NCBI GenBank assembly: GCA_934096125.1 | Contig: CAKOLB010000004.1 | Span: 55,117-119,116, forward strand | DNA: 64,000 nucleotides | Direction: 5' to 3' | From: an uncultured Bacilli bacterium | Lineage (GTDB): Bacteria; Bacillota_I; Bacilli_A; RF39; UBA660 | In this document: positions 42,201 to 62,195 of the stretch, piece by piece | Position numbering within the stretch: the stretch's first letter is position 1 | Layout of the letters: each line of letters opens with the position of its first letter | Notes under the pieces: generated by a model | Databases searched by the model: none | Told to the model about the DNA's origin: nothing | What the model saw: only the letters and a program-made list of their open reading frames with translations | Position numbers and translations under genes: made by a program

Positions 42201-42247
42201 ATGAATGATAGAGCTTTAAAAAAGGTGGTTTTGGATGCCGGACATGG
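42201..42247 (+). pseudogene. split Amidase_3-LysM hydrolase gene, segment 1 of 3
   Basis: ATG 42201 encodes MNDRALKKVVLDAGHG. The frame then enters unrelated sequence and stops at TGA 42270-42272. Confidence 0.8.
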
Positions 42248-42269
42248 GAGATACTGTTATTCTACACAA
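42242..42269. repeat. attL of element 1 (core ACATGG plus P' arm TTATTCTACACAA)
   Basis: TTATTCTACACAA (42257-42269) is the exact inverted complement of TTGTGTAGAATAA at 50551-50563. Confidence 0.7.
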
Positions 42270-42317
42270 TGAATAGAAACTATCAGAACTAGTTGATTTA
42301 CATGAAAATTAAACTTT

Positions 42318-42345
42318 AAAGAGATATTTGAAAAAGTATCTCTTT
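42318..42345 (+). promoter_or_regulatory. perfect 9-bp inverted repeat upstream of mob (candidate oriT hairpin or insulating terminator)
   Basis: AAAGAGATA-N10-TATCTCTTT followed by TTGCATATT, 29 nt before the mob start. Confidence 0.3.
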
Positions 42346-42373
42346 TTGCATATTAAAAAAAAGGGGGAATTAT

Positions 42374-43633
42374 ATGAGTTATGCAATATTTAGAAGTCAA
42401 CCAATAAATACACTACAAGATTTAGCGCAAATTGGTTCACACAATAAAAGAGAAAAGAAAGCTTATAAGAGCAATCCAGATATAAAATTAGATAGAAGTA
42501 AGGATAATATAGAATTAGTAAAATGTGCTGAAAAATATGTTAAAAGATTTTACGAATTAACTAAAGACTATAAAAAAGAACATGAAGAAAGACAAAAGAC
42601 AATGCGAGAAGATAGAAAAAAATCCTATTATAAAATGCTTAATGATGCTAGAAATGTAGTAGCAGATGAATTGTTATTTACAAGTGATAGTTTATTCTTT
42701 AAAGATAAAAGTAAGAAAGAAATATTAAGGTGGGCTAATACTTGTATGGATTTTGTTTATAATGATTTAGGTTATACTAAAGAACAGGTATTACATTCTA
42801 CTATTCATATGGATGAAAAAACACCACACATTCATTGTGTAGTGATTCCACTAGTTAAAAAATTAGATAAAAGAACTAATACAGAAAGATATACTATCTC
42901 AAAAAAGCAATATATCAAAAATAACGAGCATTTAAGTGAATTACAAGATAAATACCATAATAGATTAGTTAAGGCTGGTTTTGATCTAGAAAGAGGTTTA
43001 AAAGGCAGTACAGCAGAGAATATAAATATAAAAGAATTTAAAAAAATGACTAGAAGGTTAGATAAGTCATTAGAGAAAAGTACACTATTATTAAATGATG
43101 ATTATAATGACTTAAAAGTTAAATTAAATAAAAGTAAACCTACAATAACTGGCAAGGAAGTTAAAATAGATAAAGATACTTATCAAACATTAAATAAATT
43201 TATGAGTACGGCTAAAAGAATAATAGAAGATATTCCTAAAACACAATCAATGGTAAAAACTTTAGATGAGTATACCAAAATCTTTAGAAGTACGCAAAGA
43301 GAGAATATTCAATTAAAGAAAGAAGTAAATAGACTTGAATTAGAAAAAGAAGAAATCAAACAAGAAAATAATAGACTAGAAAATCTTATGTATAATTTAC
43401 TTCAAAGATTAAAAGATTTATTTAAAAAAATTCTTCATATAGGTACTGATAAAGAAAAAGATAATGTATCAAAAGAAATAAAGTATCATTATGATAATAA
43501 TTATTATAACGATTTAGATTTATGCTATATTTCTAAGGGAACAACTAAAGAAAGAGATATATTTGAACACATTGGTTATATCAAAAAAGGGTATAACAAA
43601 GAAAAAGAAGAAGATTTTGATATAAATAGATAA
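42374..43633 (+). CDS. mob: MobV-family (Mob/Pre) relaxase
   Basis: N-terminal HNKR motif, HMDEKTPHIHCVVIP (HxDExxPHxH) motif, and a coiled-coil C-terminal half. Confidence 0.8.
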   Translation: MSYAIFRSQPINTLQDLAQIGSHNKREKKAYKSNPDIKLDRSKDNIELVKCAEKYVKRFYELTKDYKKEHEERQKTMREDRKKSYYKMLNDARNVVADELLFTSDSLFFKDKSKKEILRWANTCMDFVYNDLGYTKEQVLHSTIHMDEKTPHIHCVVIPLVKKLDKRTNTERYTISKKQYIKNNEHLSELQDKYHNRLVKAGFDLERGLKGSTAENINIKEFKKMTRRLDKSLEKSTLLLNDDYNDLKVKLNKSKPTITGKEVKIDKDTYQTLNKFMSTAKRIIEDIPKTQSMVKTLDEYTKIFRSTQRENIQLKKEVNRLELEKEEIKQENNRLENLMYNLLQRLKDLFKKILHIGTDKEKDNVSKEIKYHYDNNYYNDLDLCYISKGTTKERDIFEHIGYIKKGYNKEKEEDFDINR

Positions 43634-43699
43634 GTCAAAACAAAAACGGACTTTTTTCGTGGTATAATAAAGAAAAACTTGTTATTTTTGGAGGTAGTT

Positions 43700-45910
43700 A
43701 TGAACAAAGAAAATAAAATTATAAATTTTAAAAATGAAGATTCAAAGAAAAATATTTCTTTAGAATTAGATAAAAAAATGATTTTTATTTACGGTAAAAA
43801 TGGTAGTGGCAAAACAACTTTTTCTAGATCGAACGATTTGGATAAAAAATATGTATTTAATGAAGACTTCGTATATAAAAATGTTTATATAATAGACGCT
43901 GAAGGAGCAAAAATTGATTCAGGTGTTAAAAATAATTTTTCAGAGTTGCTTGTTGGAGAAGATGTTGTTCTATTAAAAGAAAAACAAAATAAATTAGAAG
44001 AAATATATAAAGAATTAAATACTAAAAGTAATGATAATGAAACATTTATCAATTCTAGTTTAGCAAGTAATGGTATTCCAAACAGTTATAATTTTTTAAA
44101 GGAAAAAGTTGATGAAACTTTTAATTATGATGAAACAAAAACAATCGAAGAACAAATGGAGATATATAAGAGCGATTTAGAATTGGAACAGACTATTACA
44201 AATGATAAAGAGTTAGAAATCAATGTGAATCAAATAAAGAAACATGAGAATATTAAATTATTAATAGAAAAAATAAAAAAAATACCATTGTTAGAGGAGT
44301 TTCTTTTTTCAGAGGATTATCCAATACTATTGAAACTTAATTCTGATTTAGACATTATTAATACAAATATTCAAAACATTAAAAGTTTAGAAGAGTTAGG
44401 GAAAAAGAAAAGGGTAGAAAAAAATGATTTTTCTATTATAAGAGATTGTATAACATTACAAGAAAAAGTGGGAACTGATATTTGTGTATTATGTGGTAAT
44501 ACTGAAATTAAAGCAGGTATAGAAGAATGGAAGAAAATATTTCAGGACAAAACAGTAAATTTAAAAACGAAAGTAATATCAGAATTAAATGATATTCTAA
44601 AAAATTGTAAAACTATTATTGATGATAGAAAAGTATATGAACCTGTTGCACCTGGTACTATTAACAATATAATAATATTTATAGGAATTATAGAAAACGC
44701 TTTAAAAGAAGTGAATTTAGGCAATGTTTTAGAAATTAAATATCAAGAAATCGTAAGAGAAAAATATACTGAAGACATTATTCAAAAGTATAAAACTATT
44801 GCAAATTACGTATTAAAGAAATATAAAGATAAAACTATTTTCTTAAATTCATCACTTAAAAGTGTAGGTGGTAAAATAAAAGTAATAAAAGAAAACATAG
44901 AAAAAATTTTAAAGCTAAATGCTGACACCCATAAAGAATCAATAAACTCTATTCTTAAAGATTTGGGATTAGATAAAGAAATAACCGTTGGTGTTGATAG
45001 ACTAGGCGGTAAAATAAAATATTCACTAAATGTAGTTAATAACAATTTATCAAAATTGAGTGATGGGCAAAAACATAAATTAGCTTTGGCAATATTTTTA
45101 AATACTATTAAAAATGAAGATTTAAAAGGTAAAACAGTTGTGTTTGACGACCCTGTTGTTGCGCTTGATGAACTAGGATATCACTTTTTTAAACAATATG
45201 TTATAAAAAATATAATGAATAATCCTAACATAGAAGAATGCCCTAATCTTATTATATTAACTCACAACTTTAATTATCTTTATATACAAACAAGTAATAT
45301 AATAATTAGTCCTAATTTACAAGACAATACAAAAATATTGAAATTAAATTCAGATGGATTTAAAGAATTAGATTTTGAATTGTTTAAATTAGATGATATC
45401 GCATTATTTAAAAAATGCTTAGATAATATTAAGTATGAAGATGAATTGATAGACTTAAGTAGTTTATACAATAAAGTTTTTAGAGAATTTTTGGATTTAA
45501 AACTAAGAATACTTGGAAATCCATTAAATGGTAATCCAGCAGAAGAAATAAAGATAATAGTATCTGATGAACAAACAAGAAAATTGTTGCAGGAACAAAG
45601 TAATAAGTTAAGTAGTTATTCAAAAAATAAAAATATAACAATAGAAGAATCGAAAGAAGGTTTTTGCTTATTATCAGATATGCTAAAGACAATAGGGTTT
45701 GATGAATATATTCTGCCTCAAAACATTGATTCAATTAAAAATATTGTAAAGAGGGAAGAAATAATTTATTCAGATATATTTTATATTATTCATGAAATAG
45801 CAAATATTTTAAGAAATGAAGATAATAAATATAAAAATTATATAAATTATTTAAATCATCCAAGAATATCATTTACTAAAAATATGATGTCAACATCTAT
45901 GGATGCATAG
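43700..45910 (+). CDS. AAA_13 / RloC-PrrC-like ABC-type ATPase with zinc-hook insert (putative anticodon nuclease)
   Basis: Walker A GKNGSGKTT and a long K/E-rich coiled insert with CVLC (CxxC). Signature LSDGQKHKLA, Walker B VVFDDPVVALDE, and H-loop LTHN. The ~200-aa C-terminal domain has FREFLD and YLNHPR. Start at ATG 43700 behind GGAGG. Confidence 0.55.
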   Translation: MNKENKIINFKNEDSKKNISLELDKKMIFIYGKNGSGKTTFSRSNDLDKKYVFNEDFVYKNVYIIDAEGAKIDSGVKNNFSELLVGEDVVLLKEKQNKLEEIYKELNTKSNDNETFINSSLASNGIPNSYNFLKEKVDETFNYDETKTIEEQMEIYKSDLELEQTITNDKELEINVNQIKKHENIKLLIEKIKKIPLLEEFLFSEDYPILLKLNSDLDIINTNIQNIKSLEELGKKKRVEKNDFSIIRDCITLQEKVGTDICVLCGNTEIKAGIEEWKKIFQDKTVNLKTKVISELNDILKNCKTIIDDRKVYEPVAPGTINNIIIFIGIIENALKEVNLGNVLEIKYQEIVREKYTEDIIQKYKTIANYVLKKYKDKTIFLNSSLKSVGGKIKVIKENIEKILKLNADTHKESINSILKDLGLDKEITVGVDRLGGKIKYSLNVVNNNLSKLSDGQKHKLALAIFLNTIKNEDLKGKTVVFDDPVVALDELGYHFFKQYVIKNIMNNPNIEECPNLIILTHNFNYLYIQTSNIIISPNLQDNTKILKLNSDGFKELDFELFKLDDIALFKKCLDNIKYEDELIDLSSLYNKVFREFLDLKLRILGNPLNGNPAEEIKIIVSDEQTRKLLQEQSNKLSSYSKNKNITIEESKEGFCLLSDMLKTIGFDEYILPQNIDSIKNIVKREEIIYSDIFYIIHEIANILRNEDNKYKNYINYLNHPRISFTKNMMSTSMDA

Positions 45911-46068
45911 TCTTTTTTGAAAAATGGATATATAAAGATACATTTTAGTAACACACTACGATATTGACAGAGCCAATAACGATGTGTGCCAAGGGGATTG
46001 TCCCTTTGGAAACCCTATTAGCTCTATCGCCACTTTCATTGCTAAAGCAACAAAACGTGCCACGAGCT

Positions 46069-46103
46069 AAAAAGACTGACAAAAATTAATTGTCAGTCTT
46101 TTC
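46069..46103. terminator. bidirectional hairpin terminator
   Basis: AAAGACTGACAA-N7-TTGTCAGTCTTT perfect 12-bp stem flanked by A and T runs. The stop of the minus-strand XRE gene lies in the loop. Confidence 0.65.
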
Positions 46104-46361
46104 TGATGGAATATCATCAAATAGTTGTCTGATGTCTATTCCTAAAGCATCAGCAAATTTACCTATGGTTTCTAATGTTGGAGTTTTATCAATGCTTAAG
46201 CATTCTAAATCTCGAACATATCCATGAGTCAGTTCAGTTAAATCAGCTAATTCTTGAAGTGTATAACCACGTATAAGTCTGTATTTTCGAATGTTTTTTC
46301 TAACTTGAATAGATAAAATTGTTTTTGAATATCTTCTCATAGAAGTTATACACCTCCTCAC
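46086..46361 (-). CDS. XRE-family HTH transcriptional regulator
   Basis: HTH region LIRGYTLQELADLTELTHGYVRDLE. 91 aa. Confidence 0.75.
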   Translation of the reverse strand: MRRCITSMRRYSKTILSIQVRKNIRKYRLIRGYTLQELADLTELTHGYVRDLECLSIDKTPTLETIGKFADALGIDIRQLFDDIPSEKTDN

Positions 46362-46448
46362 ATTTAAATTATTTCATAAAAATTTTAAAAAATATGTCGC
46401 CTGACAGAAGTTTTTGTGATATAATTAAAATGAAAGGAGACTGCTTTT

Positions 46449-46925
46449 ATGAAGAAATGCAAATATTGTCAAACTGAAATTGACTCAAAAGCAAAAATTT
46501 GCCCAAACTGTAAAAAGAAACAAGGTAAACCAAAATGGTTAATAGCTTTAATTGTTATTATTGTAATAATGATTATTGCATCTGTTGCTGGAGGTAACGA
46601 AGAGAATGCTAAGGAAGGAAATGTTTCAAACGGAGGTAATAAGCCAACAGAAAAATTTACTTATGAAGTAACAAAACAATATGCAGATGAATATGGTATG
46701 TCTTATTATATAGAAGGTAGTGTAAAAAATAATAAGGATAAAGATTATTCATATGTTCAAATTGAATTTGTTTGCTATGATGCAGAAGGCAATAACCTTG
46801 GAACTGCTATTGATAATACAAATAATTTACTAGGAAATCAGACTTGGAAATTTAAAGCAATGGCTATGTTTAGTGATGCTGAAACTGTTGATCATTGCGA
46901 TTATCATGAAATAACAAGCTGGTAA
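46449..46925 (+). CDS. zinc-ribbon / TM / FxLYD-like domain protein
   Basis: CKYC...CPNC ribbon, one TM, and an extracellular beta-rich domain with IEFVCYDAEGNNLG (FxLYD-like). Confidence 0.45.
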   Translation: MKKCKYCQTEIDSKAKICPNCKKKQGKPKWLIALIVIIVIMIIASVAGGNEENAKEGNVSNGGNKPTEKFTYEVTKQYADEYGMSYYIEGSVKNNKDKDYSYVQIEFVCYDAEGNNLGTAIDNTNNLLGNQTWKFKAMAMFSDAETVDHCDYHEITSW

Positions 46926-47035
46926 AATAGTTGGAAGTCTTTTTAAGACTTCTTTTTGTTAGATTTTTTTACCAAAATAGTCGTTTTATATTTGTTTTAT
47001 GTTATAATAATATTTAATGAAAAAAGGGTGGTTTT

Positions 47036-47335
47036 ATGTATCAATTATTGAGTTTATTCAGTTTTCTTATTAGGGCATATTTGTGTTATTGCACAATAGA
47101 TAATATTCCAATATTAGCTAATCCGATATTAAATAGTATTTTAGGGGAAGTAATATCCTTATATACTATTTTGTGGGCAATAAGTTATTTTGTTGTTGGA
47201 AGATTTTATGATAAAGGTTCTGAACCCTTGTTAGGTGTTATTTTATATTTTATTGTATATGTTGTAATTCTGGGAATTACATATTTATTGTTGTTATTAT
47301 TAACATATATTGGAGTTTTACCAATAGTTATATAA
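47036..47335 (+). CDS. small hypothetical membrane protein
   Basis: 99 aa with three hydrophobic segments. No family recognised. Confidence 0.4.
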   Translation: MYQLLSLFSFLIRAYLCYCTIDNIPILANPILNSILGEVISLYTILWAISYFVVGRFYDKGSEPLLGVILYFIVYVVILGITYLLLLLLTYIGVLPIVI

Positions 47336-47364
47336 ATAAAAAAACTTATCGTTGTGATAAGTTT

Positions 47365-47904
47365 TTATAGGTTTATTCTATCATCAGGTAATTTTGAGTA
47401 ATCATATTTTTCAGCACACATTTCTAAATCTTCGTAAATAGAGGTTAATTGTGCTAATATTTTTTCGGGTGGAAGTAATTCTTTATAATAATCATAATCT
47501 TTAAGTAAAAGCATCATTTGGAATATTCTTGTTCTGCAATCAGCAACTTTAGTTCTTTTCTCATAAGAATCTTCTAATAAATCCAATTGAGATTCTCTAT
47601 ATTGTTTTACTAATTCCTTTATATTTTTAGGAGTTTTATGTTTTGAAGTGTCTTTGAAACTATCTAGAATATCACTATAACCAGCAGTAGTTAAAAGAAA
47701 TTCTAAACTTATTTCTAATACTTCAGATAAACTTCTTAACATATCTATATCTGGTTTTTTAATATTACCTTTTTCAAGTTCATTATATGTAGAGTGATGT
47801 GTATTGATTAAACGAGCTACTTTTCTTTGAGAGTAGCCTTTTTTTGTTCTAGCAGTCCTTAATATTTTACTTAATTCTTCAAGATTAGCATTATTATTTT
47901 CCAT
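47365..47904 (-). CDS. XRE-family HTH regulator with C-terminal extension (element repressor candidate)
   Basis: HTH region KKGYSQRKVARLINTHHSTYNELEKGN. Divergent from the HTH_36-like ORF across an operator-bearing intergenic region. Confidence 0.7.
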   Translation of the reverse strand: MENNNANLEELSKILRTARTKKGYSQRKVARLINTHHSTYNELEKGNIKKPDIDMLRSLSEVLEISLEFLLTTAGYSDILDSFKDTSKHKTPKNIKELVKQYRESQLDLLEDSYEKRTKVADCRTRIFQMMLLLKDYDYYKELLPPEKILAQLTSIYEDLEMCAEKYDYSKLPDDRINL

Positions 47905-47971
47905 TTAAACCACCTCTAAAATGCTTTCTTCCAATAACATAATACCATAACGAAAATTAAAAAGCAATAAT

Positions 47972-48037
47972 TTTGTCGGTTATTCTTGACAAAATTATAA
48001 TTACAATGTATATTATAGTTGTCGGGCAATCTTGACA
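47972..48037. promoter_or_regulatory. two copies of a 20-bp operator-like site overlapping -35 elements
   Basis: TTGTCGGTTATTCTTGACAA (47972-47991) and TTGTCGGGCAATCTTGACAA (48018-48037). Each is a TTGTC...GACAA inverted repeat containing TTGACA. The first TTGACA has a 17-nt spacer to TATATT. Confidence 0.5.
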
Positions 48038-48134
48038 AAAAAGGGGGATAGTAATAAAGTAGATTGCTAATGCGACTAATGTTCTTTGAAAATTTACACA
48101 AGTCTTTAAAGGTTAATTAAAAGGGGGTGATAGC

Positions 48135-48638
48135 ATAACAGAATCTATAAAAGATGGGTTTTGGATTATACCTGCAAAAGTAGGTATAGATGATGCACTC
48201 ACATTACAAGATAAATTACTATATGCTCAAATCTTATCATTAACAAGACAAGATGGATTCTGTTTTGCTACTAATTCTTATCTATCTAATTTAAATAATG
48301 TTACTCCAAAAACAATTTCTAACAGTATTTCTAATCTTAAAAAAAATAATTATATACGAGTTGAATATCACAAGGAAAAAATAAATAAAGATAAAAGAAA
48401 AATATTTGTAACTGATAAGGGGGTATGGAAAACAAATCCTGGGGATATAGAAAAAAATGTTAATACCGGTATGGAAGATAATTTCCAATATAATAATATA
48501 AAGAATAAAAAGATAAAAAAATATAATACCAATAATAATGTTCCTTGGTGGCTAGATAAAGAAATTAAAGAAAATCCTGCATCTCTAGAAGAACAAGCAG
48601 AGATGGAAGCACTACTAAGCGAATTTAAAAAAGATTGA
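48135..48638 (+). CDS. HTH_36-type winged-helix protein (plasmid/ICE replication- or regulation-associated), no canonical start codon
   Basis: The frame is open from 48117 to TGA 48636-48638 and encodes ...WIIPAKVGIDDALTLQDKLLYAQILSLTRQDGFCFATNSYLSNLNNVTPKTISNSISNLKKNNYIRVEY. The strong SD AAGGGGG (48121-48127) lies 7 nt before ATA 48135. The first in-frame ATG/GTG/TTG is not until about 48470. Confidence 0.55.
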   Translation: MTESIKDGFWIIPAKVGIDDALTLQDKLLYAQILSLTRQDGFCFATNSYLSNLNNVTPKTISNSISNLKKNNYIRVEYHKEKINKDKRKIFVTDKGVWKTNPGDIEKNVNTGMEDNFQYNNIKNKKIKKYNTNNNVPWWLDKEIKENPASLEEQAEMEALLSEFKKD

Positions 48639-48714
48639 AAAGGAGTTGGTTTTATAAATAAATACAAGACTAAATCATAAAATTTAATAAAAAGGAAAAG
48701 GGGGAATTATAAGA

Positions 48715-48846
48715 ATGGAGGTAGTACTTAAGGCAAAACACACATTTAAAACTGATATATCAAACGAAGAATTATTTAGAGATAGATTTAACGAGATATT
48801 GTTAAAAGTTATATTGCATCTTGAGCAAAATTACCAAAGTAGTTAA
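48715..48846 (+). CDS. small ORF (43 aa) immediately upstream of recombinase 1
   Basis: ATG 48715 preceded by AAAAGGGGG. Encodes MEVVLKAKHTFKTDISNEELFRDRFNEILLKVILHLEQNYQSS. Too short to appear in the track. Confidence 0.35.
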   Translation: MEVVLKAKHTFKTDISNEELFRDRFNEILLKVILHLEQNYQSS

Positions 48847-48937
48847 AAAAATTATAAATAACTATCAAAAAGGGGTATAATATAAGTTGTAGTCGATTTA
48901 GTTCTGATAGTTATACACAGAATTGGAGGATATAACT

Positions 48938-50533
48938 ATGAGACTAAGAGTTGGTATTTATGGGAGGTTATCACAAGAGGATATAGATAAGATAAACAAA
49001 GAAGATGAAAGTGAAAGTATCCAAAATCAAAAAAGAATGTTATTAGAGTATGCTTTAAAAAATGATTGGGATGTAGTTGATATTTATATTGATGAAGATT
49101 ATTCAGGTGCTGGAGTTTATAGACCAGAGTTTGAGAGAATGCTAAAAGATTGTGAAAATGGAAAACTAGATATAGTTTTATGTAAGAGTCAATCAAGATT
49201 CTCGAGAGATATGGAAATAATTGAAAGATATATAAATAACAAATTTAAAGAATGGAATGTTAGATTTATTAGTTTAGTAGATAATATAGATACTGATAAT
49301 AAATCTAATAAGAAATCTATTCAAATATTAGGACTAACTAATGAATGGTATTTAGAAGATTTATCAGATAACATTAAAAGAACAATTAGGAATAAAAAAG
49401 AGTCTGGACAATTTACTGGTTCATTTGCTCCCTATGGTTATTTAAGAAGTGAAGAAGATAAACACAAATTAGTTATTGATCCTATTGCTTCAATCATTGT
49501 TAAAAAGATATTTGAAATGTATAAACAAGGTAATGGTTATACTAAAATAGCAACTTATTTGAATGATACTAATGTTCCTAGTCCTTATGAACACAAAAAA
49601 GCAAGTGGTAGTAAATTTGTATGTGGAAATGTTGGAAAGGAAAAATCATATTGGTATTCAGATACAATTGCTAAAATCTTAAAAGATGAAGTATATATTG
49701 GAAATCTAGTACAAGGAAAAACAAGGCATATAAGTTATAAAAATAAAAAATCAGTTCCTGTTCCTAAAGAAGATTGGATAATTGTTAAAAACACACACGA
49801 ACCTATAATAGATGAAGATACTTGGAATATAGTTTCTGCTAAATTTAAAGGTAGGACAAAGCCAAGTAAATCTGGGGAAATTCATATGTTTACTAAAAAG
49901 GTTTATTGTGATTGTTGCAAAAAAATATTTTATAATGGTTATTCTAAATCAGGAAATGGGAACAAGCATTATTATTTAACTTGTAAGTCTAGAAAATCAG
50001 GGGTGTTTTGTGAAAATAATCTATCTATTAGAGTAGATAAATTAAAAGACTTTATCCTTAATGAGATTAATGAATATATCAAAGTTTATCATAATTCTAA
50101 AGCTTTAAATGAGAAATACCAAAAATTAAATACTAAGAATAATAAAAATGAGATTCAAGAACAAATTAAAACTTTGGAAAAACAACAAACTGAATTAGAA
50201 AAATCACAAAGTAAAAAGAATTCTTATTTAAGAAAATTATATGAAGATAGAATAGAGGGTTTCATTACTGATGAGCAATACAAAGCTTTTAGTAAAGACT
50301 ATGATGATGAATTAAATGAATTGCAAAACAGAATTCAATTAATAAAAGATGAAATCACTCTCTTAAATCAAAGGCACAGTGATATGATTGATAGAGATAA
50401 AATATTTAATAAATATAAATCTATAAAGGAATTAGATAGAAGTATATTAGATGATTTTATAGAAAAAATATATATCGGTGCAGTAGATAAAGAAACGAAT
50501 GAACGAGAAATAAATATTGTATGGGCCATATAA
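48938..50533 (+). CDS. large serine recombinase (resolvase domain, recombinase domain, zinc ribbon, coiled coil)
   Basis: VGIYGRLSQED catalytic-Ser motif, SIQNQ, YIDEDYSG, and SRFSRD. Cys cluster CDCC...C...C. C-terminal coiled coil with FIEKIYIG...REINIVW (DUF4368-like). Start at ATG 48938 behind GGAGG. Confidence 0.9.
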   Translation: MRLRVGIYGRLSQEDIDKINKEDESESIQNQKRMLLEYALKNDWDVVDIYIDEDYSGAGVYRPEFERMLKDCENGKLDIVLCKSQSRFSRDMEIIERYINNKFKEWNVRFISLVDNIDTDNKSNKKSIQILGLTNEWYLEDLSDNIKRTIRNKKESGQFTGSFAPYGYLRSEEDKHKLVIDPIASIIVKKIFEMYKQGNGYTKIATYLNDTNVPSPYEHKKASGSKFVCGNVGKEKSYWYSDTIAKILKDEVYIGNLVQGKTRHISYKNKKSVPVPKEDWIIVKNTHEPIIDEDTWNIVSAKFKGRTKPSKSGEIHMFTKKVYCDCCKKIFYNGYSKSGNGNKHYYLTCKSRKSGVFCENNLSIRVDKLKDFILNEINEYIKVYHNSKALNEKYQKLNTKNNKNEIQEQIKTLEKQQTELEKSQSKKNSYLRKLYEDRIEGFITDEQYKAFSKDYDDELNELQNRIQLIKDEITLLNQRHSDMIDRDKIFNKYKSIKELDRSILDDFIEKIYIGAVDKETNEREINIVWAI

Positions 50534-50550
50534 TTTAGTCCATACAGGAC

Positions 50551-50580
50551 TTGTGTAGAATAAACATAACCTCCACATGG
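50551..50580. repeat. attR of element 1 (P arm TTGTGTAGAATAA plus core ACATGG)
   Basis: Lies 18-47 nt after the recombinase stop. The arm is the inverted repeat of 42257-42269, and the core is identical to 42242-42247. Confidence 0.7.
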
Positions 50581-50806
50581 TGGTGATGATCCGGGGACTA
50601 TTGCAAATGGAATAACTGAAAAAGATTATACTTTGAAGATAACAAATTATATTCACAACAGATTAGATGAACTTGGAGTGCCAAATAAATTATCGAGGAG
50701 TACTGATGAGACTTTAGATGCCAGTAGTAGGCCACAGAGAATACAAAGTCTTTATGGAAATGGGAGTGATGTGATTGTTGTGTCTAATCACATAAATGCA
50801 GGGGGA
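50581..50806 (+). pseudogene. split Amidase_3-LysM hydrolase gene, segment 2 of 3
   Basis: Continues in frame from segment 1: (G)GDDPGTIANGITEKDYTLKITNYIHNRLDELGVPNKLSRSTDETLDASSRPQRIQSLYGNGSDVIVVSNHINAGG. It then diverges and stops at TAA 50816-50818. Confidence 0.8.
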
Positions 50807-50828
50807 CAGGACGCGTAATATGTGGTTA
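50785..50828. repeat. attL of element 2 (B arm TAATCACATA, core GGA, P' arm TATGTGGTTA)
   Basis: TAATCACATA at 50785-50794, GGA at 50804-50806, and TATGTGGTTA at 50819-50828. The last is the inverted form of TAACCACATA. Confidence 0.6.
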
Positions 50829-50928
50829 ATCGTAGGCGCAGTGTATAACTTTAATAAGCTTCTTATTTTACTGTATATGATGGTATAATAGATATATCAA
50901 ATAACTTTAAAGATGAGAGGTGAAAAGA

Positions 50929-51840
50929 ATGTTATATATAACTGGTGATACTCATGGAGATTTTTATAGATTTGGTCATTTAGGATTAAATGAAGGTGAT
51001 ATTATGATTATCTTAGGGGATGTGGGTATTAATTATTACTTAGATGAATATGATAAAAAGTTAAAGGAAAGATTAAAAAGATATAATTTTAAATTTTTCT
51101 GTATTCAAGGTAATCATGAAAAAAGACCAGAAAATATTTCAAGTTACCACGAAGTGGAAATGTTTGGCGGTAAAGTATTTGTAGAAGATGAATATCCTAA
51201 TTTAGTATTTGCTAAAAATGGAGAACTTTATAATATTGATGACAAAAGTATTTTAGTAATAGGTGGAGCTTATTCTATTGATAAAGATTATAGAATAAGT
51301 AAAGGATATCCTTGGTTCAAAGATGAACAATTAACTGAGAAAGAGAGACTAAATATATTGGACGAGTATTCTGGTAAACATGTGGATATAATTTTATCTC
51401 ATACTTGTCCATTAAGATATGAACCTAAAGAAAGCTTTAAATTAAGTTTGCCACAGATTGCGATAGATAAATCTATGGAGTATTTTCTAAATGAAGTAGA
51501 GCAAAGAGTAGATTATGGTAAATGGTATTGTGGACATTATCATTTAGAAAAAATTGTGGACAAGTTAGAGTTTATGTTTGGAAGAATTAAAAGTGTTGAC
51601 ACAGGAGAATTTATTCCTAAATATGATTTCCATAATGGCTACAAAATAGTTAGAGATGTATGTAGTCAAAAAGATTATAAATATTGTCCTGAATGTAAAG
51701 GAGATAATATAATTATAGAAAAAGGTGAAGGACATAATATTAATGGTTTAGATTTTATTGCTATCATTTGTAATGATTGTAAAAAAGTTTATGGATTTAA
51801 TGATGTTAATTATAAACGTAATTGTCCTAAAGAATTGTAA
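50929..51840 (+). CDS. calcineurin-like metallophosphoesterase with C-terminal zinc ribbon
   Basis: GDTHGD, GDVG, and QGNHE motifs, plus SHTCP. C-terminal CPECKG...CNDCKK. Confidence 0.7.
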   Translation: MLYITGDTHGDFYRFGHLGLNEGDIMIILGDVGINYYLDEYDKKLKERLKRYNFKFFCIQGNHEKRPENISSYHEVEMFGGKVFVEDEYPNLVFAKNGELYNIDDKSILVIGGAYSIDKDYRISKGYPWFKDEQLTEKERLNILDEYSGKHVDIILSHTCPLRYEPKESFKLSLPQIAIDKSMEYFLNEVEQRVDYGKWYCGHYHLEKIVDKLEFMFGRIKSVDTGEFIPKYDFHNGYKIVRDVCSQKDYKYCPECKGDNIIIEKGEGHNINGLDFIAIICNDCKKVYGFNDVNYKRNCPKEL

Positions 51841-51914
51841 CTGTGTTTACCAAATTTTAAAATTTATGCTATAATTAAGATGTAATAATTATTTGACTAA
51901 GTGTGGTGAGTAGT

Positions 51915-52550
51915 ATGGAGTATAGAAAATATTCATTTAGACATGCAGAAGATATTTTTAAAAACGATAAGGATTTTACTTATTTATGGAATGAAATTTT
52001 GGAAGTGCTTGATAGTATAAGCGATGATGATTTAATTAATGAATTTAACATTGAAACTAGAAAAGCAAAAAGCATTTCCGAAGCAATTAATAAATTAATT
52101 GCAAAAAGGCTAAGTGAAAAAGGATGGCATGAACAAAGTTACATTTTTGCTGACCCTGATTATTCTGATAATAAAGGTACATGGAGATTAGATTTTGCAA
52201 AAGATAATATTGCAATTGAAGTTGCATTTAATCATGGAGGAAATGTATCTTGGAATTTAATTAAGCCAGTATTATCTAGTGAATTAAATCATGTTAAAAA
52301 GGCAATACAAACTCAAGCTGGCGTTGTCATAACAGCAACTGATGCTATGAAAAAAGCCGGTGGATTTGATAATGCTATCGGTACCTATGAAAAATATGTT
52401 GAATATCTAAAACCATTAAATAATTTGTTAACCACACCTATGATGATAATAGGATTAGAACCACCAAAAAAGTTTACTATTGAGCAGAAAAAAGAAGATG
52501 GTAAAATGGTTGGACATGTTAAATTAAAAGAAGAAGATAATAACTTTTAG
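51915..52550 (+). CDS. BglII/BstYI-fold restriction endonuclease-like protein (orphan)
   Basis: WRLDFAKDNIAIEVAFNH...SSELNH...GVVITAT...TYEKY...MMIIGL parallels the BglII core DIDFGKRDTLVEVQFSN...SELFH...IIITK...LVGL as I recall it. The D-x8-E spacing is kept, but the E-V-Q glutamine position is Ala. Confidence 0.55.
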   Translation: MEYRKYSFRHAEDIFKNDKDFTYLWNEILEVLDSISDDDLINEFNIETRKAKSISEAINKLIAKRLSEKGWHEQSYIFADPDYSDNKGTWRLDFAKDNIAIEVAFNHGGNVSWNLIKPVLSSELNHVKKAIQTQAGVVITATDAMKKAGGFDNAIGTYEKYVEYLKPLNNLLTTPMMIIGLEPPKKFTIEQKKEDGKMVGHVKLKEEDNNF

Positions 52551-52601
52551 ACTTACAATTTTGTGAGTCTTTTTATTTTGAAAAAGAAAGGATACGATAT
52601 T

Positions 52602-52895
52602 ATGAAAATAAAAACAAATAGAGAAGAGGGTTATGTAGTTATGGGTAACTATCATCTAAGAGATAAAAAATTAAGCTTAAAAGCAAAAGGACTATTATCT
52701 ATAATGTTGTCATTACCAGACACATGGTGTTATTCCACGCTAGGATTATCTAGTATTTGTGTTGAAAGCAGGGATACAGTTAGAAATATATTAAAAGAAT
52801 TAAAGGAAGCAAAATATTTAAAGGTAGTTGAAAATAGAGATGAAAATGGTAGATTTAATTATGAATATGTAATTTATGAAAAACCCTATATGTAA
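52602..52895 (+). CDS. HTH_36-type winged-helix protein
   Basis: LSLKAKGLLSIMLSLPDTWCYSTLGLSSICVESRDTVRNILKELKEAKYLKV. Same family pattern as the ORF at 48135. Start set to ATG 52602. Confidence 0.55.
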   Translation: MKIKTNREEGYVVMGNYHLRDKKLSLKAKGLLSIMLSLPDTWCYSTLGLSSICVESRDTVRNILKELKEAKYLKVVENRDENGRFNYEYVIYEKPYM

Positions 52896-53069
52896 TAATC
52901 CATGGTATCATTACGGTTACATGGATTTCCGTATGCGGTTATTTATTCACAATAAATTATTTAGAAGTAATTAATAAAACAAATAGATAAAGTCGATAAA
53001 ACCTCTATCGATTCAAAAAAAGAGAAGGTTTTATAGTATAATTTCTCTTTTCATTGGTTAATTTAGCTA

Positions 53070-54467
53070 TTAAATAAATTCTTTTAATATATTTTCTAAG
53101 TATTTACTATTTAACCAAAAACAATGCTTTGTATATTCAGCTAATCCTGTTAACTTGTCTTTTACAGGTAATGGCAAAGTATCTTTTGAGTCTCTAGCAT
53201 GTGGTCTAACATGGCAAACTCCATTATCCCCGATTCCTGGAAAGTTAGTATTTCTTTTACCCATATTATCAATTGATTTAATAATATTTCCAGATAAAAT
53301 AATGTTTTTTGTATTATTCCACATATTTTTCACTTCATTTTCAAGTGTTAGTTCTGGCATGTTCCATAATTTTATACCACTAAAGATATAATCATTATCT
53401 TTCTTTTTAAATATAAAGAACATGTATTTTGTAGTTTCTAATTCTTCTTTTAACTTTGATTCTTCCCAATCAGTTGTTTTAAAATCCATATAATTGAAAT
53501 ATGGAAAAGGCATAGATTCTTTAATGTGTCCATTTTCTTCAACTCTGATTGTTCTTGGAACTATATTTGCTTTTTGGAATTCATCAGTATCACGAAGTCT
53601 AGATTTAACATTAAACATTCTAGCTATCAGTATTCCATTTAAATTTTTTGCATTAGAATCAATATTAAATTCATGCATTAATTGTTTTTGAGTTTTCCCC
53701 TGATATTTCTTGGTAACATTTTCAACAAATTCAGTAAATGATTCACCAGCATTTTTAATAACTTTTTCAACATCTTCATAATTTCCAATATATTTTCTAA
53801 CGAGTCCTGTCATATAAGAAGTTTTTAAACAAAATGCTCTTTGCTTTGCTTTAATTGATGAAAAAGGTTGTTCTCTAACGGATTTTTTATTTGCTCCTTT
53901 TGTACAAGCACCAAGATACATTGTATCTGCTTCTGATATCTCATGGGCTTTTCCTTGTTTAATTTTATTAATTATTGTTTCCCAATCCTTAATAATTATT
54001 GGTAAATCTTCTTTTGGAAATGTAAATAATAACTCGTGTGTTATTCTTAAATCATTTTTATTTTTGTGAGGTTCGTAAAAATACCAAATTATTTGAATTT
54101 TATTATTTTTAAACCAAAAATGACTAGAGTAAAATTCATTTTTATATTCATCCATATAATTAATTATGTTTAGAACAAGTCTTTCTTTAGCTGATAAAGT
54201 ATTGTCTTTGTTTTTCTTATACGGTGTAACTTTAAGTTCTATTCCCGCATCAATAAAGTCAGGCGCAGATATTGAATTAATGTTGTATCCATATACATTA
54301 GTTTCAAATAAATGACCAAAGAAAGCTTTATTAAACTTTTCATCATCTTTGTTATATTCATTGTTATAAATAGTTGTTACATTCATATTATTTAATTCTT
54401 TAAAAGTTTTTCCTAATGCACTTTTAGCTAAAATTTGAATTTCATCTTTTGTGTAACTTTTTGCCAT
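53070..54467 (-). CDS. MutH/Sau3AI-family type II restriction endonuclease
   Basis: N-terminal MutH-like core APDFIDAGIELKVTP (D...E-x-K). The size fits the two-domain Sau3AI type. Divergently paired with a C5 methyltransferase. Confidence 0.7.
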   Translation of the reverse strand: MAKSYTKDEIQILAKSALGKTFKELNNMNVTTIYNNEYNKDDEKFNKAFFGHLFETNVYGYNINSISAPDFIDAGIELKVTPYKKNKDNTLSAKERLVLNIINYMDEYKNEFYSSHFWFKNNKIQIIWYFYEPHKNKNDLRITHELLFTFPKEDLPIIIKDWETIINKIKQGKAHEISEADTMYLGACTKGANKKSVREQPFSSIKAKQRAFCLKTSYMTGLVRKYIGNYEDVEKVIKNAGESFTEFVENVTKKYQGKTQKQLMHEFNIDSNAKNLNGILIARMFNVKSRLRDTDEFQKANIVPRTIRVEENGHIKESMPFPYFNYMDFKTTDWEESKLKEELETTKYMFFIFKKKDNDYIFSGIKLWNMPELTLENEVKNMWNNTKNIILSGNIIKSIDNMGKRNTNFPGIGDNGVCHVRPHARDSKDTLPLPVKDKLTGLAEYTKHCFWLNSKYLENILKEFI

Positions 54468-54636
54468 AAAAATTTCCTTTCGATCTTGTTTTTATCTCAA
54501 AAATAATTTAAAATATATATATAGTGTTGATCTTTTTAAAATATTATTTTATAATTAATATGTAAGAAGTTGATCTTTTCGCTTAAATATATTATAATAT
54601 ATTTAAATATGTTTAACAATTATTAGGAGGCGTTTT

Positions 54637-55875
54637 ATGCAAAAAACAGTAGTAGAATTATTTGCCGGTGTTGGTGGATTTAGATGTGGATTAAATAATG
54701 TAAAATTAAAAGATAATAAAGTTATTGAAAAAGGTAATTGGAATTTTGTGTGGGCGAATCAATGGGAACCTTCTACTAAAACACAAGAGGCTTTTGAATG
54801 CTATTCAAAAAGATTTGGAAAGGATGATGTTAGTAATGTAGATATATTTCAAGTAAATAAAAAAGAGATACCTAATCATACTTTATTAGTTGGTGGTTTT
54901 CCATGTCAAGATTATTCTGTTGCACAGACACTATCTAATAGCAAAGGAATTGATGGAAAAAAAGGTGTTTTGTGGTGGGCAATTGCAGATATATTAAAAG
55001 TTAAGAAACCTCCATTTGTGTTTTTAGAAAATGTTGATCGCTTACTTCTTTCGCCAGCGAGTCAAAGAGGCAGAGATTTTGGAATAATTTTGAGAAGTTT
55101 TTATGAAAATGGATATGATTTAGAATGGCGAGTTATCAATGCGGGAGAATATGGATTTCAACAAAAACGTAGGAGAATTTATATAATTGCATATCACAAA
55201 TCAACTAAATATTGTAAGAAAATGAGAAAAATTGATAAGAAAAATATATTACTTAAGGAAGGTATTTTCATAAAACAGTTTCCTGTAAAAGAGAAAGAGT
55301 TTAACTCAAATGTATCAAGTATTTCAGAATATAAAGATTTAGTCGATGTTAGTGATAATTTTAAAAACCAATTTTATAATTCTGGAGTTATGATAAATGG
55401 TGAAATATATACTGCCAAATTAGAACATAATTGCGATAGTGTATATCAGTTAGGCAATTTAATAGAAACTAATAAGGTTGATGAAAAATATTTCCTTTCA
55501 AAAGATAGAATTGAGAAATTTAGAATATTAAAGGGAAGTAAAAGAATACCTAGAAAAAAGCCAAATGGAGATGATTACATTTATTCTGAAGGTTCAATGC
55601 CATTTCCTGATAATCTAAATGTTCCTGCTAGAACAATGCTGACTTCAGAAAGTGGAACTAGCAGAATGACACATGTTATAGAGGACTATAGAACTAAAAA
55701 ATTAAGATTTTTAACACCATTAGAGTGTGAAAGAATTAATGGATTTCCAGATAATTGGACAAATACTGGGATGAGTGATAAGAAACGATATTTCATGATG
55801 GGTAACGCTTTAGTAGTAAATGTTGTTGAAAAAATAGGGATTGAATTGGAAAAAATAGTAGAAATGGAAGAGTAA
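54637..55875 (+). CDS. DNA (cytosine-5)-methyltransferase, Sau3AI-type (GATC specificity inferred)
   Basis: Motif I ELFAGVGGF, motif IV GGFPCQDYS, motif VI LENVDRLL, motif VIII QQKRRRIYIIA, and motif X GNALVV. WANQWEPS and SPASQRGRDF resemble M.Sau3AI-like enzymes. Confidence 0.85.
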   Translation: MQKTVVELFAGVGGFRCGLNNVKLKDNKVIEKGNWNFVWANQWEPSTKTQEAFECYSKRFGKDDVSNVDIFQVNKKEIPNHTLLVGGFPCQDYSVAQTLSNSKGIDGKKGVLWWAIADILKVKKPPFVFLENVDRLLLSPASQRGRDFGIILRSFYENGYDLEWRVINAGEYGFQQKRRRIYIIAYHKSTKYCKKMRKIDKKNILLKEGIFIKQFPVKEKEFNSNVSSISEYKDLVDVSDNFKNQFYNSGVMINGEIYTAKLEHNCDSVYQLGNLIETNKVDEKYFLSKDRIEKFRILKGSKRIPRKKPNGDDYIYSEGSMPFPDNLNVPARTMLTSESGTSRMTHVIEDYRTKKLRFLTPLECERINGFPDNWTNTGMSDKKRYFMMGNALVVNVVEKIGIELEKIVEMEE

Positions 55876-55984
55876 ATGAAAAAATGTTAAAATTTGGTAA
55901 TTTATCTAAATAGTGTTATAATTTTATACAGAAGATATGCAGTATTTGTCTTTTTAAGATGGATACTGCATTTTTTTGAAGTAG

Positions 55985-56950
55985 GTGGTAGTATTGGATT
56001 CACTTAATTATGAAGTTTTTAAAAAAATAAAGAAATATTATAATGATAATTGCAAACCTTTAATTTTTGTTGGAGAAAAATTATTATCGCAGAATAACAA
56101 ATGTAAAATGTATTTTTGTGATGTTGATTTAAATCAAGAAAAAGAAAATTATAGAAAAGTTTTTCAAGAATATTTGGCACTTTATGTTAGAAATCATGAT
56201 TTGCTAAAATATTATGATAAGATTATAAAAAGTGAAACAGAAGATGAAATTTCAGAAGCTTTAATTTATTATGGAAATGATTTGTGGAATAATACCGTAT
56301 TGATAACTACAACTACACCAGAGACTTTAGGGATATATGGAGAAGCCATTAATGATTTTTATTTAAATATTGTTAAGAATGAAAATATAATTATCACTTA
56401 TTCAGCAAAAAGGGGGTATGGTGAACGTAATATAAAAGGGGTAGATGTAGTTGCATGTACTTGGAAAAAAGATAATCTTGTACTAATATTTTCTGAGTGT
56501 AAATTTGTCGAATCAATATATAAGGCGTCGTGTGGTTTATATAATGATATAAAGGGAACTCAATATGAATTGGCACATATAAGTAAAGATTATATAAACG
56601 GATATTCTACTTATATTGTTGATAATGCTCATTCAATTTTTGCAGAGAGTAATAATTCAGATAAAATTATAGATGTTTTGGACAAATTGAATAGTAGGAT
56701 AATAAATGGAAACAAGGCGATAGATGTGTTTAATGAATTAAACATAAAAATTCAATTTAATTTCTTTGCAATTTACTGTGATAATAAATTTACACCAGAT
56801 GAAAGACAAATAATGTTTGAAAAAGTATATAATGCTTTTTATGAAAATGTAAAATTAACAGGTATTAAAAATTATGATATGGAAATTGTGTATATACCTA
56901 TTAAAAATACAAGCTCTGTGGTAAAGGAATGTATGAGACAATGGAATTGA
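55985..56950 (+). CDS. HamA-like (DUF1837-type) PD-(D/E)xK nuclease candidate, first gene of a Hachiman-like pair
   Basis: 321 aa, with GVDVVACTWKKDNLVLIFSECKF giving a D...E-x-K arrangement. Overlaps the downstream helicase gene by 22 nt. Confidence 0.5.
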   Translation: MVVLDSLNYEVFKKIKKYYNDNCKPLIFVGEKLLSQNNKCKMYFCDVDLNQEKENYRKVFQEYLALYVRNHDLLKYYDKIIKSETEDEISEALIYYGNDLWNNTVLITTTTPETLGIYGEAINDFYLNIVKNENIIITYSAKRGYGERNIKGVDVVACTWKKDNLVLIFSECKFVESIYKASCGLYNDIKGTQYELAHISKDYINGYSTYIVDNAHSIFAESNNSDKIIDVLDKLNSRIINGNKAIDVFNELNIKIQFNFFAIYCDNKFTPDERQIMFEKVYNAFYENVKLTGIKNYDMEIVYIPIKNTSSVVKECMRQWN

Positions 56951-59322: not shown

Positions 59323-59333
59323 AATCATGTCCG

Positions 59334-59362
59334 TTGACTGTCCTATAAATTTATGGTAAAAT
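59334..59362 (+). promoter_or_regulatory. near-consensus sigma-A promoter in the hamB-to-59637 intergenic region
   Basis: TTGACT (59334-59339), 17-nt spacer ending in TGG, then TAAAAT (59357-59362). Confidence 0.5.
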
Positions 59363-59636
59363 GGTAATATAGGATAAGTGTAAGAGATGCAAATTTATGA
59401 GAGGATTTTCCCTCTTTTTTTGTGTCTTTAAAAAAAATTATCTTTTTGAAAGAAAGGTAAATTTTATCTAAAATATTCTAAACTGTCGGAGACTATTAGT
59501 GGGTTTTAGGGATATTCCCTAACAAGCTAGATGGGTGTGTATACACCATGCTTGATATATTATATTACACGGGTATGTAACCTCAAAATAGGATTTAATG
59601 GTAATCTGAAATGTGGTATGAAATGAAAGGAGAAAT

Positions 59637-60209: not shown

Positions 60210-60312
60210 CTAGATTAGTTTGGAATATAACTAATTTTTTTATGTCCTAATTTTGATAATAAAGTCTTATAGTTGTTCTTATTTCATAAAATGAAAGGAG
60301 AGGTGTAGATTA

Positions 60313-60405: not shown

Positions 60406-60463
60406 GAGTTTGTGATATAATGATATTGCTTATTGAAGTTATACACGTTGGAAGGAGTAGTAA

Positions 60464-62089: not shown

Positions 62090-62195
62090 ATAATAAAAAT
62101 AGGGTGGTAAAATTTGGTAATCACACAATCTTACCATCCCCTATACTATTTTTAGAAAAAATAAAAACGCAGTAAAATCAAGAAAAATGATAGCC

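Follow-up and report, generated by a model that had tools for sequence, protein, structure and literature searches.

Why should two mobile elements enter the same bacterial gene, each at the DNA that encodes one of its catalytic motifs? The question is raised by a contig from an uncultured Bacilli bacterium (lineage RF39, UBA660), of which 64,000 nucleotides, hereafter the window, were analyzed (contig CAKOLB010000004.1, positions 55,117 to 119,116 of the forward strand). An Amidase_3 gene in the window is split into three fragments by two insertions, element 1 at site 1 and element 2 at site 2. The explanation we favor, with a probability of roughly 0.8, is that these are two independent elements in one non-essential autolysin gene, each belonging to a lineage of large serine recombinases (LSRs) with a fixed attB on catalytic-site motif DNA. 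This explanation includes the assignment of the target as a non-essential autolysin gene of CwlC-like layout, with an N-terminal Amidase_3 domain, C-terminal LysM repeats and no signal peptide. The junctions, the crossover dinucleotides, an empty site, the correspondence between recombinase lineage and site, and the codon-position pattern of the att sites were all observed directly.

The amidase open reading frame (ORF) starts at 42201 (MNDRALKKVVLDAGHG), and positions 42231-42250, TTG GAT GCC GGA CAT GGG AG, encode L-D-A-G-H-G before element DNA takes over, the sequence beyond site 1 being unrelated and AT-rich. The frame picks up at 50576 with CAT GGT GGT GAT GAT CCG (HGGDDPG), breaks a second time at 50805 after ...VVSNHINAGG, and picks up again at 62219 with GG T GGC GAT GGT GCA GAA (GGDGAEV), to reach a stop at 63133. 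Joined together, the three pieces give a 394-residue ORF without frameshift or stop, which covers positions 1-173 of the 174 in the Pfam Amidase_3 profile (PF01520) and adds four LysM repeats; no signal peptide is present, and the catalytic domain extends from residue 9. Intact orthologues, at about 70% identity, read DAGHGGDDPG and HINAGGGDGAEV across the two joints. Alignment to the solved Amidase_3 structures 5J72, 4RN7, 5EMI and 7RAG places His15 in the GHGG motif, His86 in SxHxNA and Glu154 in ExGF, and these residues and Glu29 all align with the motifs of homologues, so that together with the full-length profile match they identify the target as an Amidase_3 gene. Ligand roles were taken over from work on C. 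difficile CwlD, in which His49, Glu65 and His133 are the zinc ligands, Glu199 is catalytic, and mutation of His49, Glu65 or Glu199 abolishes function (PMC8496864). The three fragments part His15 from Glu29 and His86, and both of these from Glu154. Because the zinc ligands and the catalytic glutamate sit on different fragments, it is reasonable to suppose that the predicted amidase is inactive while either element is integrated.

Contigs from the same species, located through the upstream neighbor gene of the amidase, supplied the empty state of site 1. In three of them (L105, L111 and L106) the site reads GATGCCGGACATGGTGGTGATGATCC, which is exactly the left part of attL1 joined to the right part of attR1, and the 94-residue product predicted for a gene with site 1 empty and site 2 occupied was found verbatim on 20 contigs. 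A second type of site-1 element in this species (L104), with a different recombinase of 534 residues, has only the dinucleotide CA common to its attL and attR. Throughout the clade of Rec1, the LSR of element 1, attL takes the form host...GGN-CA/element and attR the form element...CA/TGG-NGG (a slash marks the junction), and attP1, rebuilt from both element ends (AACCTCCACATGGGAGATACTG), is symmetric about CA with a perfect 13-bp inverted repeat in register. From the CA-only overlap, the clade-wide pattern and the attP1 symmetry, the site-1 crossover is therefore placed at bases 1 and 2 of the His15 codon.

At site 2 the reconstructed attP2 is symmetric about GG. Another type of site-2 element, represented by its attL in L106 and its attR in L002, has an 8-bp core common to both ends (GGTGGCGA), and these ends lead to an inferred attB2 of AAT GCA GGG GGT GGC GAT GG (AATGCAGGGGGTGGCGATGGTGC), the left half of which is the coding DNA of S-N-H-I-N-A-G itself. 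As in LSR crossovers, attL, attR and attB have in common only CA at site 1 and only GG at site 2. Precise excision would restore the amidase ORF.

A preliminary description, made from the letters of the window alone, had located both insertions in the DNA of the two most conserved Amidase_3 motifs, and the base-pair junctions together with the empty site 1 bear this out. Its statement that the motifs hit are those with the zinc-binding histidines needs refinement: element 1 does cut inside the codon of a zinc ligand, but element 2 leaves the His86 codon whole and cuts five codons downstream. Similarly, the att sites are as unrelated as it had supposed, with no mutual similarity, but the recombinases are not, since Rec1 and Rec2, the LSR of element 2, are homologous at 33% identity. 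By our own arithmetic, two random insertions would fall within the ~30 nt and ~27 nt concerned of a 1185-nt gene with a chance of ~1e-3, which is small but not negligible genome-wide, and the window holds only two events. Nevertheless, chance landing in the motifs, or a chimeric assembly, is hardly credible as an explanation: dozens of assemblies, independent of one another and drawn from various samples and species, repeat the same junctions to the base pair, the sequence of the empty site is just as predicted, and these recurrence data effectively refute both coincidence and artefact.

Table 1. Features of the window discussed in the text; positions are counted from its first nucleotide.
Feature	Position	Strand	Remarks
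Amidase fragment A	42201..42244	+	Start codon to CA of His15 codon (MNDRALKKVVLDAG + CA); contiguous with fragment B in L105, L106 and L111
Amidase fragment B	50576..50805	+	HGGDDPG ... SNHINAGG; zinc ligands Glu29 and His86
Amidase fragment C	62219..63133	+	GGDGAEV ..., catalytic Glu154 (VEYGF), four LysM repeats, stop codon
attL1 crossover dinucleotide CA, first two bases of His15 codon CAT	42243..42244	+	Counterpart 50576-77
attP1 right arm (TTATTCTACACAA)	42257..42269	+	Perfect inverted repeat of 50551-50563, at equal distance from CA
attP1 left arm (TTGTGTAGAATAA)	50551..50563	+	
attL2 crossover dinucleotide GG, Gly91 codon positions 1-2	50804..50805	+	Counterpart 62219-20; center of attP2 symmetry
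Element 1	42245..50577	+	8.3-kb integrative mobilizable element; G+C 25.4% vs host 29.8%; absent from same-species L105, L106 and L111
MobV-type relaxase	42374..43633	+	Pfam Mob_Pre, E = 8e-28
AAA_13 ATPase	43679..45910	+	Candidate defense gene; weak matches to PADLOC PDC-S06 and AbiLi
HTH_3 regulator of element 1	46086..46361	-	
HTH_3/HTH_19 repressor-like regulator of element 1	47365..47904	-	
Rec1, 536-residue LSR	48923..50533	+	Resolvase + Recombinase + Zn_ribbon_recom + DUF4368
Element 2	50806..62220	+	11.4-kb defense island, no relaxase; G+C 25.6% vs host 29.8%
Metallophosphoesterase	50920..51840	+	Conserved left-end gene of Rec2-type elements
Type II restriction endonuclease, MutH/Sau3AI-like	53070..54467	-	PADLOC REase_II, E = 3e-105
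C5 cytosine DNA methyltransferase	54637..55875	+	
Hachiman-like pair, HamA + HamB helicase	55985..59322	+	HamB E = 9e-71 (strong); HamA E = 2e-4 (weak)
190-residue ORF	59637..60209	+	Conserved beside the recombinase in Rec2-type elements (59 contigs)
Conserved 30-residue ORF	60313..60405	+	Directly upstream of Rec2; candidate accessory or directionality factor, proposed by analogy with the 42-residue GirX of gin
Rec2, 541-residue LSR	60464..62089	+	Resolvase + Recombinase + Zn_ribbon_recom, no DUF4368
Intact cwlD-like paralogue	27157..27807	+	DAGHGGLDPG and SVHLNF; unoccupied in the window; orthologues occupied in L092, L207 and others
SpoVT-like AbrB regulator	435..923		Sporulation-associated
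YabG peptidase	5209..5985		Sporulation-associated; above NCBIfam cutoff
SpoVB-like flippase	10890..12515	-	Sporulation-associated
GerQ	16085..16453	-	Sporulation-associated

Rec1 carries the LSR domains PF00239, PF07508, PF13408 and PF14287, and Rec2 the first three of these. The preliminary description had proposed a survey of homologous recombinases and of the codons into which they insert, on the argument that insertion of relatives at many unrelated loci would speak against a preference for amidase motifs. One relative, P0242 (which has 86% identity to Rec1 and appears in 251 blocks of the collection), was found as one identical protein on one 9-kb element with a Gabija-like pair in at least five different Amidase_3 genes, of which one is an orthologue of the window cwlD (the two are 42% identical, have equal TIGR02883 scores and share the gene order cwlD-Abi_2-HtrA). 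The same His-codon junction is used by P0306 (52%), by P0247 (59%) and by a 714-residue recombinase on a conjugative element (L001). A metagenome scan with P0242 returned 79 loci at 30-100% identity, among which all resolvable relatives of at least 49% identity, plus L208 at 46%, adjoin an Amidase_3 gene at the His codon. Taken together, relatives of Rec1 down to ~46-49% identity gave 0 exceptions in ~50 resolvable loci, from several collections and with different cargos and hosts, all at the CA of the motif His codon. Variants of the target were tolerated, including one H-G-Y-L-D-P-G and, in some loci, CAC for the His codon. The cwlD-like gene, which according to the preliminary description has the same motifs and is not targeted, is indeed intact in the window, but its orthologues are entered elsewhere (L092, L149, L152, L154-156, L207 and L214): the metagenome scan held eight clear cwlD-type targets, the one in L207 being 65% identical to the window cwlD, and an ambiguous one (L158), making the cwlD motif DNA, proposed earlier for testing as a substrate, a natural substrate.

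The Rec2 lineage was equally regular within a narrower range. Its best 120 relatives are all at least 80% identical, and those examined (96%, 87% and 81% identity; range 81-97%) all sit at ...GG/TGG(C/T)GATGG or ...GG/TGCAGAAGG, the junction HxNAGG/G recurring in at least four different amidase orthologues with different cargo. A third lineage, represented by a 522-residue recombinase 40% identical to Rec2, inserts at Y-T-V-V-R-G-D/S-L-W-S-I-A, the hallmark LysM motif, the repeat entered being the first in some contigs and the second in others, and relatives of this recombinase at 88-89% identity also adjoin LysM at G-D/S. Since the LysM domain is repeated, one gene offers several alternative att sites. 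Among the more distant relatives of the LysM-site recombinase, at 52% identity or below (L118-L133), no amidase or LysM sequence was found nearby.

Beyond these limits specificity changes. Sister clades of Rec1, at 42-48% identity, are not at amidases. Five loci (L160, L163, L168, L180 and L188) have relatives 42-48% identical to P0242 in an ABC ATPase gene, the remnant of which starts (Q)RVAL...LLLDEP; the insertions lie just after the LSGGQ signature, a permease gene follows, and attR reads ...CATTCA/AAGAGTTGC, so the crossover here is possibly another CA. Three more (L200, L213 and L217), within the same range of identity, split a CotJC-like Mn-catalase gene at one profile position, ~147-150. 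Thus the Rec1 clade and the close relatives of Rec2 keep their motif sites, and insertion at many unrelated loci was not what the survey found; distant relatives do use sites other than the amidase catalytic motifs, although these still encode conserved regions (LysM Y-x-V-x-x-G-D/S, the ABC region after LSGGQ, and the Mn catalase).

What might hold such sites constant can be read from the codons. Over the V-I-D-x-G-H-G-G-x-D-x-G core, the information content of 13 independent attB1 sequences, rebuilt from both flanks, is 1.57 bits at codon position 1, 1.84 at position 2 and 0.82 at position 3. Because positions 1 and 2 are conserved and position 3 wobbles, this conservation is a protein footprint; judged from these sequences, it is the protein that keeps the att DNA from changing, and wobble changes are tolerated by the recombinases. 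What these enzymes target is a protein motif and not any one gene. Under the mechanism proposed here, each integration would be a conservative site-specific recombination catalyzed by the element's own LSR, with the strands exchanged in D-x-G-H-G-G-x-D-x-G for the Rec1 lineage, at the CA that begins the codon of the zinc-ligand His, and after S-x-H-x-N-A for the Rec2 lineage, at the GG of the second codon for Gly. The recognized bases would mostly be codon positions 1 and 2 of invariant residues, so that the site would persist across species and even in paralogues like cwlD, and a motif attB would provide the elements with landing sites that are widespread and lasting. On the standard reading of such a pattern, we infer that motif constraint is the reason these sites were selected. 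The earlier proposal of selection for att sites that cannot drift is thereby supported by the survey and the codon pattern, although selection itself is not proven.

The interrupted gene does not look abandoned. The product of fragment C was found on 77 contigs, and in four orthologues interrupted at site 2 its catalytic part gave ratios of nonsynonymous to synonymous substitution rates (dN/dS) of 0.19-0.41, with near-saturated dS and no stops, indicating that the fragments are not old pseudogenes. Either new insertions keep arising, or the gene is restored from time to time.

It could be supposed that the gene, and not the motif, is preferred: the autolysin might be dispensable or its loss beneficial, later insertions would be costless, and their location in motifs would be incidental. 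At least five or six types of element or recombinase are found in this one gene, at three regions; double insertions recur in further genomes (L088, L089, L094, L095, L104 and L151); and about a fifth of species-level representatives have a site-1 insertion without obvious gene decay, all of which fits such a preference. We nevertheless regard it as improbable, since all of the independent sites lie on invariant motifs (DxGHGG, HxNAGGG and LysM GD(S/T)L) and none on the variable linkers that account for much of its length, enzymes of the Rec1 clade are also found in cwlD and in further Amidase_3 genes with nothing but the motif in common, the gene that the sister clades enter at the ABC signature region is an unrelated one, and each site is also found occupied alone in other genomes.

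Several points weigh against fixed attB sites on motif DNA as the explanation. A gene-level cause, whether dispensability or a benefit of autolysin loss, could account for the repeated insertions equally well. One of our surveys was an amidase-first scan of genome contigs (80 species-level loci from uncultured gut Bacilli), which inflates the share of amidase targets, the recombinase-first surveys being the unbiased ones. In that scan the match begins exactly at residue 15 in 15 of the 80 loci; eight of the 15 are at a contig start, and five of these eight were confirmed as insertions where the assembly broke, because element-end sequence lies 60-87 bp upstream of the junction. The ten loci with upstream flank (L001, L032, L033, L039, L044, L046, L054, L058, L069 and L076) have a recombinase 46-51% identical to Rec1, ending ~50 bp upstream of the junction. 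An empty site 2 was not seen, and among ~15 billion proteins there is no intact allele of the gene from this species; excision at site 2 is deduced only from the turnover of different elements there. The Rec2 survey resolved no relatives between 52% and 80% identity, and a scan of viral contigs with Rec2 gave two loci only, in which the target of the 52% relative (L114) did not resolve.

In addition to their recombinases, the elements encode functions that bear on what kind of mobile DNA they are (Table 1). Element 1 is polymorphic in the species, being present on ~20 contigs and absent on 20. Element 2 also holds a BglII-like ORF and an HTH_36 gene, and its Hachiman assignment comes from adjacent HamA (DUF1837, a weak match) and HamB, the copy in L105 having a weak PF08878 match. 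The cargo of element 2 varies by strain, and includes restriction-modification with Hachiman, CBASS with Fic/HipA and a type I system, BREX-like genes, or an NgoPII system. Within the species at least three element families occupy site 2, with junctions within ~9 bp of one another. More broadly, the same recombinase module travels with different cargos, in MobV mobilizable elements, a conjugative element and defense islands, and the defense-island cargos (restriction-modification, Hachiman, CBASS, BREX-like, Gabija-like) are swapped. Prophages that use the amidase as a lysogeny site, the amidase perhaps being a phage endolysin, would be another conceivable source of such insertions, as Amidase_3 genes without a signal peptide resemble endolysins and some related recombinases come from viral-contig collections, beside Bro-N, RhuM or Fic genes. 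This is extremely unlikely, since no capsid, tail, terminase or portal gene was found in element 1 or element 2, the content of which is a relaxase, regulators and defense systems, and the amidase lies in a chromosomal order that is conserved across species (an HD-like ORF, the amidase, then CmpB and SleB-like genes).

The principle of these insertions is already known. Diverse LSRs converge on conserved genes, many of them on that for the ComM Mg-chelatase and 33 on one conserved prolyl-isomerase site; in the same study (Durrant et al., 2022; PMC10083194) a clade of LSRs bearing DUF4368 looked 'multi-targeting', and some of the target motifs were complex. As in that work, diverse clusters here have one attB in a conserved coding gene, specificity tracks recombinase phylogeny, and one recombinase module is found with different cargos. 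What differs is the use of one gene by different lineages, through at least three of its motif sites. Rec1 has DUF4368 and P0242 is found in at least five distinct amidase genes, so by the Durrant rule (>3 target clusters) the Rec1 clade is multi-targeting, yet the target is always one protein motif; the reading of 'relaxed specificity' is not applicable to this clade, because all of its targets have one motif in common. The Amidase_3/LysM target family is mentioned neither in Durrant et al. (2022; PMC10083194) nor in those of its supplements that were searched, the searched reviews of mobilizable and intervening elements contain no amidase target, and our literature searches gave nothing specific on an amidase target of serine recombinases or intervening elements. 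New here are the gene that is targeted and the way in which several lineages stack within it.

These elements make a clean natural test of whether integrases settle on DNA kept constant by protein function, and in several hosts a single recombinase protein was found to use one and the same motif, in paralogues as well as orthologues. They also suggest caution for recombinase censuses, in which a 'multi-targeting' enzyme may be strictly motif-specific. The amidase gene is a predictable hotspot for mobile defense islands in uncultured gut Bacilli, and related recombinases with defined attB/attP pairs and crossover dinucleotides are candidate genome-engineering tools.

Among characterized mobilizable elements, those of the Tn4451 family have a TnpX large resolvase and a TnpZ MobV relaxase, and Tn4451 has low integration specificity (PMC5704250). 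Element 1 resembles Tn4451/Tn4453 in having a Mob_Pre (MobV) relaxase at one end and a DUF4368 LSR at the other, in its small size and in its lack of conjugation genes; this layout of LSR and MobV relaxase without type IV secretion genes was found for element 1 only. Unlike Tn4451, the Rec1 clade is strict for the Amidase_3 motif, with none of the low specificity of that family, and it crosses over at CA. The Tn4451 crossover dinucleotide is GA. The cargo of element 1 is defense-related or of unassigned function and includes no chloramphenicol resistance, in which it also differs from Tn4451, and a single feature, DUF4368, ties Rec1 to TnpX. Other Firmicutes mobilizable elements enter conserved genes of conjugative elements (traG, oriT) as well as housekeeping genes (PMC5704250). 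The present elements are like these in their serine recombinases, their high specificity for conserved coding sequence and their tandem or stacked arrangements, and are unlike them in that the target is a chromosomal cell-wall hydrolase motif, the same across paralogues.

A further comparison is with the intervening elements of spore formers, skin (sigK), SPbeta (spsM), gin (gerE) and yin (yabG) (PMC4191935, PMC5595907), of which gin is non-phage and relies on a 42-residue accessory factor, GirX (PMC5595907). The uncultured gut Bacilli lineage studied here, relatives of which are labelled 'Acholeplasma sp. CAG:878', is probably a spore former too, judging by gene content, because the window carries sporulation-associated genes (Table 1). 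Here, as in skin, SPbeta, gin and yin, a coding gene is split by an element that bears an LSR, in a host that forms spores or, in the present case, probably does so, and precise excision would rebuild that gene; like gin the elements are non-phage. In contrast to all four, they are horizontally mobile and polymorphic in the species, and two or three stack in one gene. An amidase target is not reported for intervening elements in PMC5595907 or PMC4191935.

It is conceivable, although in our judgment rather unlikely, that the elements are coupled to sporulation in the manner of skin, SPbeta and gin, being excised in the terminally differentiated mother cell to rebuild a CwlC-like lysin while the forespore keeps them. 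Such coupling would be compatible with motif-bound LSR lineages as the explanation of the insertions, to which it would add a regulatory layer. Host sporulation genes point in this direction (YabG above its NCBIfam cutoff, and GerQ, SpoVT-like, SpoVB-like and CwlD-like proteins), as do an amidase without a signal peptide that in related loci neighbors a SleB-type Hydrolase_2 gene, or YlbD_coat and YlbE, and a site 2 that seems always occupied in the species, yet in fragments that stay open under purifying selection (dN/dS 0.19-0.41). Some related recombinases target the CotJC-like Mn catalase and cwlD, both sporulation genes, and small conserved ORFs (30-43 residues) stand beside the recombinase genes, as does GirX (42 residues) in gin (PMC5595907). 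On the other side, the conserved promoters upstream of Rec2 and of the 190-residue ORF are sigma-A-like (TTGACT-17-TAAAAT and an extended -10), and no sporulation-type promoter was identified by eye in the aligned regions upstream of these two genes; matches to sigma-E or sigma-K consensus sequences in DNA of 25% G+C are not interpretable. The elements are also actively mobile (relaxase, swapped cargo, presence/absence polymorphism), which ordinary turnover already explains, and the purifying selection could equally mean recent, repeated insertions. The fuller proposal, that the split amidase is a developmentally rebuilt gene from which two (elsewhere three) LSR elements are excised in sporulation to give a CwlC-like mother-cell lysin, seems to us slightly more doubtful still. 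If true, defense islands would ride permanently in the germline at no cost, and it would be explained why site 2 is always occupied in this species while the fragments stay under purifying selection. Among cases of the skin/SPbeta type it would then be the first with several elements, as well as the first with exchangeable defense islands as stacked passengers, and would extend developmental gene reconstitution to stacked, exchangeable elements.

Some smaller features of the elements and their relatives were also recorded. In one relative (L096, 11629) the element end gives an in-frame ATG (ATG CCC CGA / CAT GG), from which a 457-residue amidase beginning MPRHGG... was called; this is probably fortuitous, and provision of a new start codon for a truncated amidase was rejected as a general role of the element end, since it was seen in L096 only, the window has a stop three codons upstream, and it is absent in most relatives. 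Directly upstream of Rec1 is a conserved 43-residue ORF (48715-48846), a candidate directionality or accessory factor by analogy with the 42-residue GirX of gin. An ORF at 10890-12515, considered as a third recombinase, was rejected as unrelated and SpoVB/MurJ-like.

The other element family found at site 2 in some strains of the species (L106 10975-20561 and L002 1-480) combines CBASS (SMODS and S_4TM) with Fic, HipA and a type I restriction system; no recombinase was seen in the parts of it that were covered. In L097-L102 (e.g., L099 12243-16190) the amidase gene is split at the LysM G-D/S by a third element, which encodes the 522-residue recombinase and has an ASCH gene. The 52% relative of Rec2 in L114 (3403-10371) lies in a tandem array beside a gene for a TraG-like coupling protein, in the order TraG-like gene, recombinase, two metallophosphoesterase genes like the one at the left end of element 2, and a second, shorter recombinase, which suggests an accretion of elements or an insertion into a conjugative element.

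The conserved sigma-A-like promoter TTGACT-17-TAAAAT of element 2 lies within positions 59334-59600 of the window, where it is followed by a leader of ~110 nt, likewise conserved, that contains hairpins (GGGATATTCCC, GGTGTGTATACACC) and precedes the 190-residue ORF in all Rec2-type elements. The leader matched no Rfam family and gave no covariation or compensatory change, and a second copy was not found within the window. Given that element 2 lacks a relaxase, an oriT-like site or a regulatory RNA would be conceivable.

The intact paralogue at 27157-27807 scored 193.8 bits against TIGR02883 (CwlD), under the curated equivalog cutoff of 221.55, and since this is nevertheless its best match, and a full-length one, 'cwlD-like' is the safe name. 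Between it and the Abi_2 and HtrA genes the window has ORFs of 290, 511 and 908 residues, the last with a VWA domain (27972-33114); all three are missing from the same-species contig L106, where cwlD directly precedes Abi_2, giving a 5.4-kb presence/absence polymorphism beside the paralogue.

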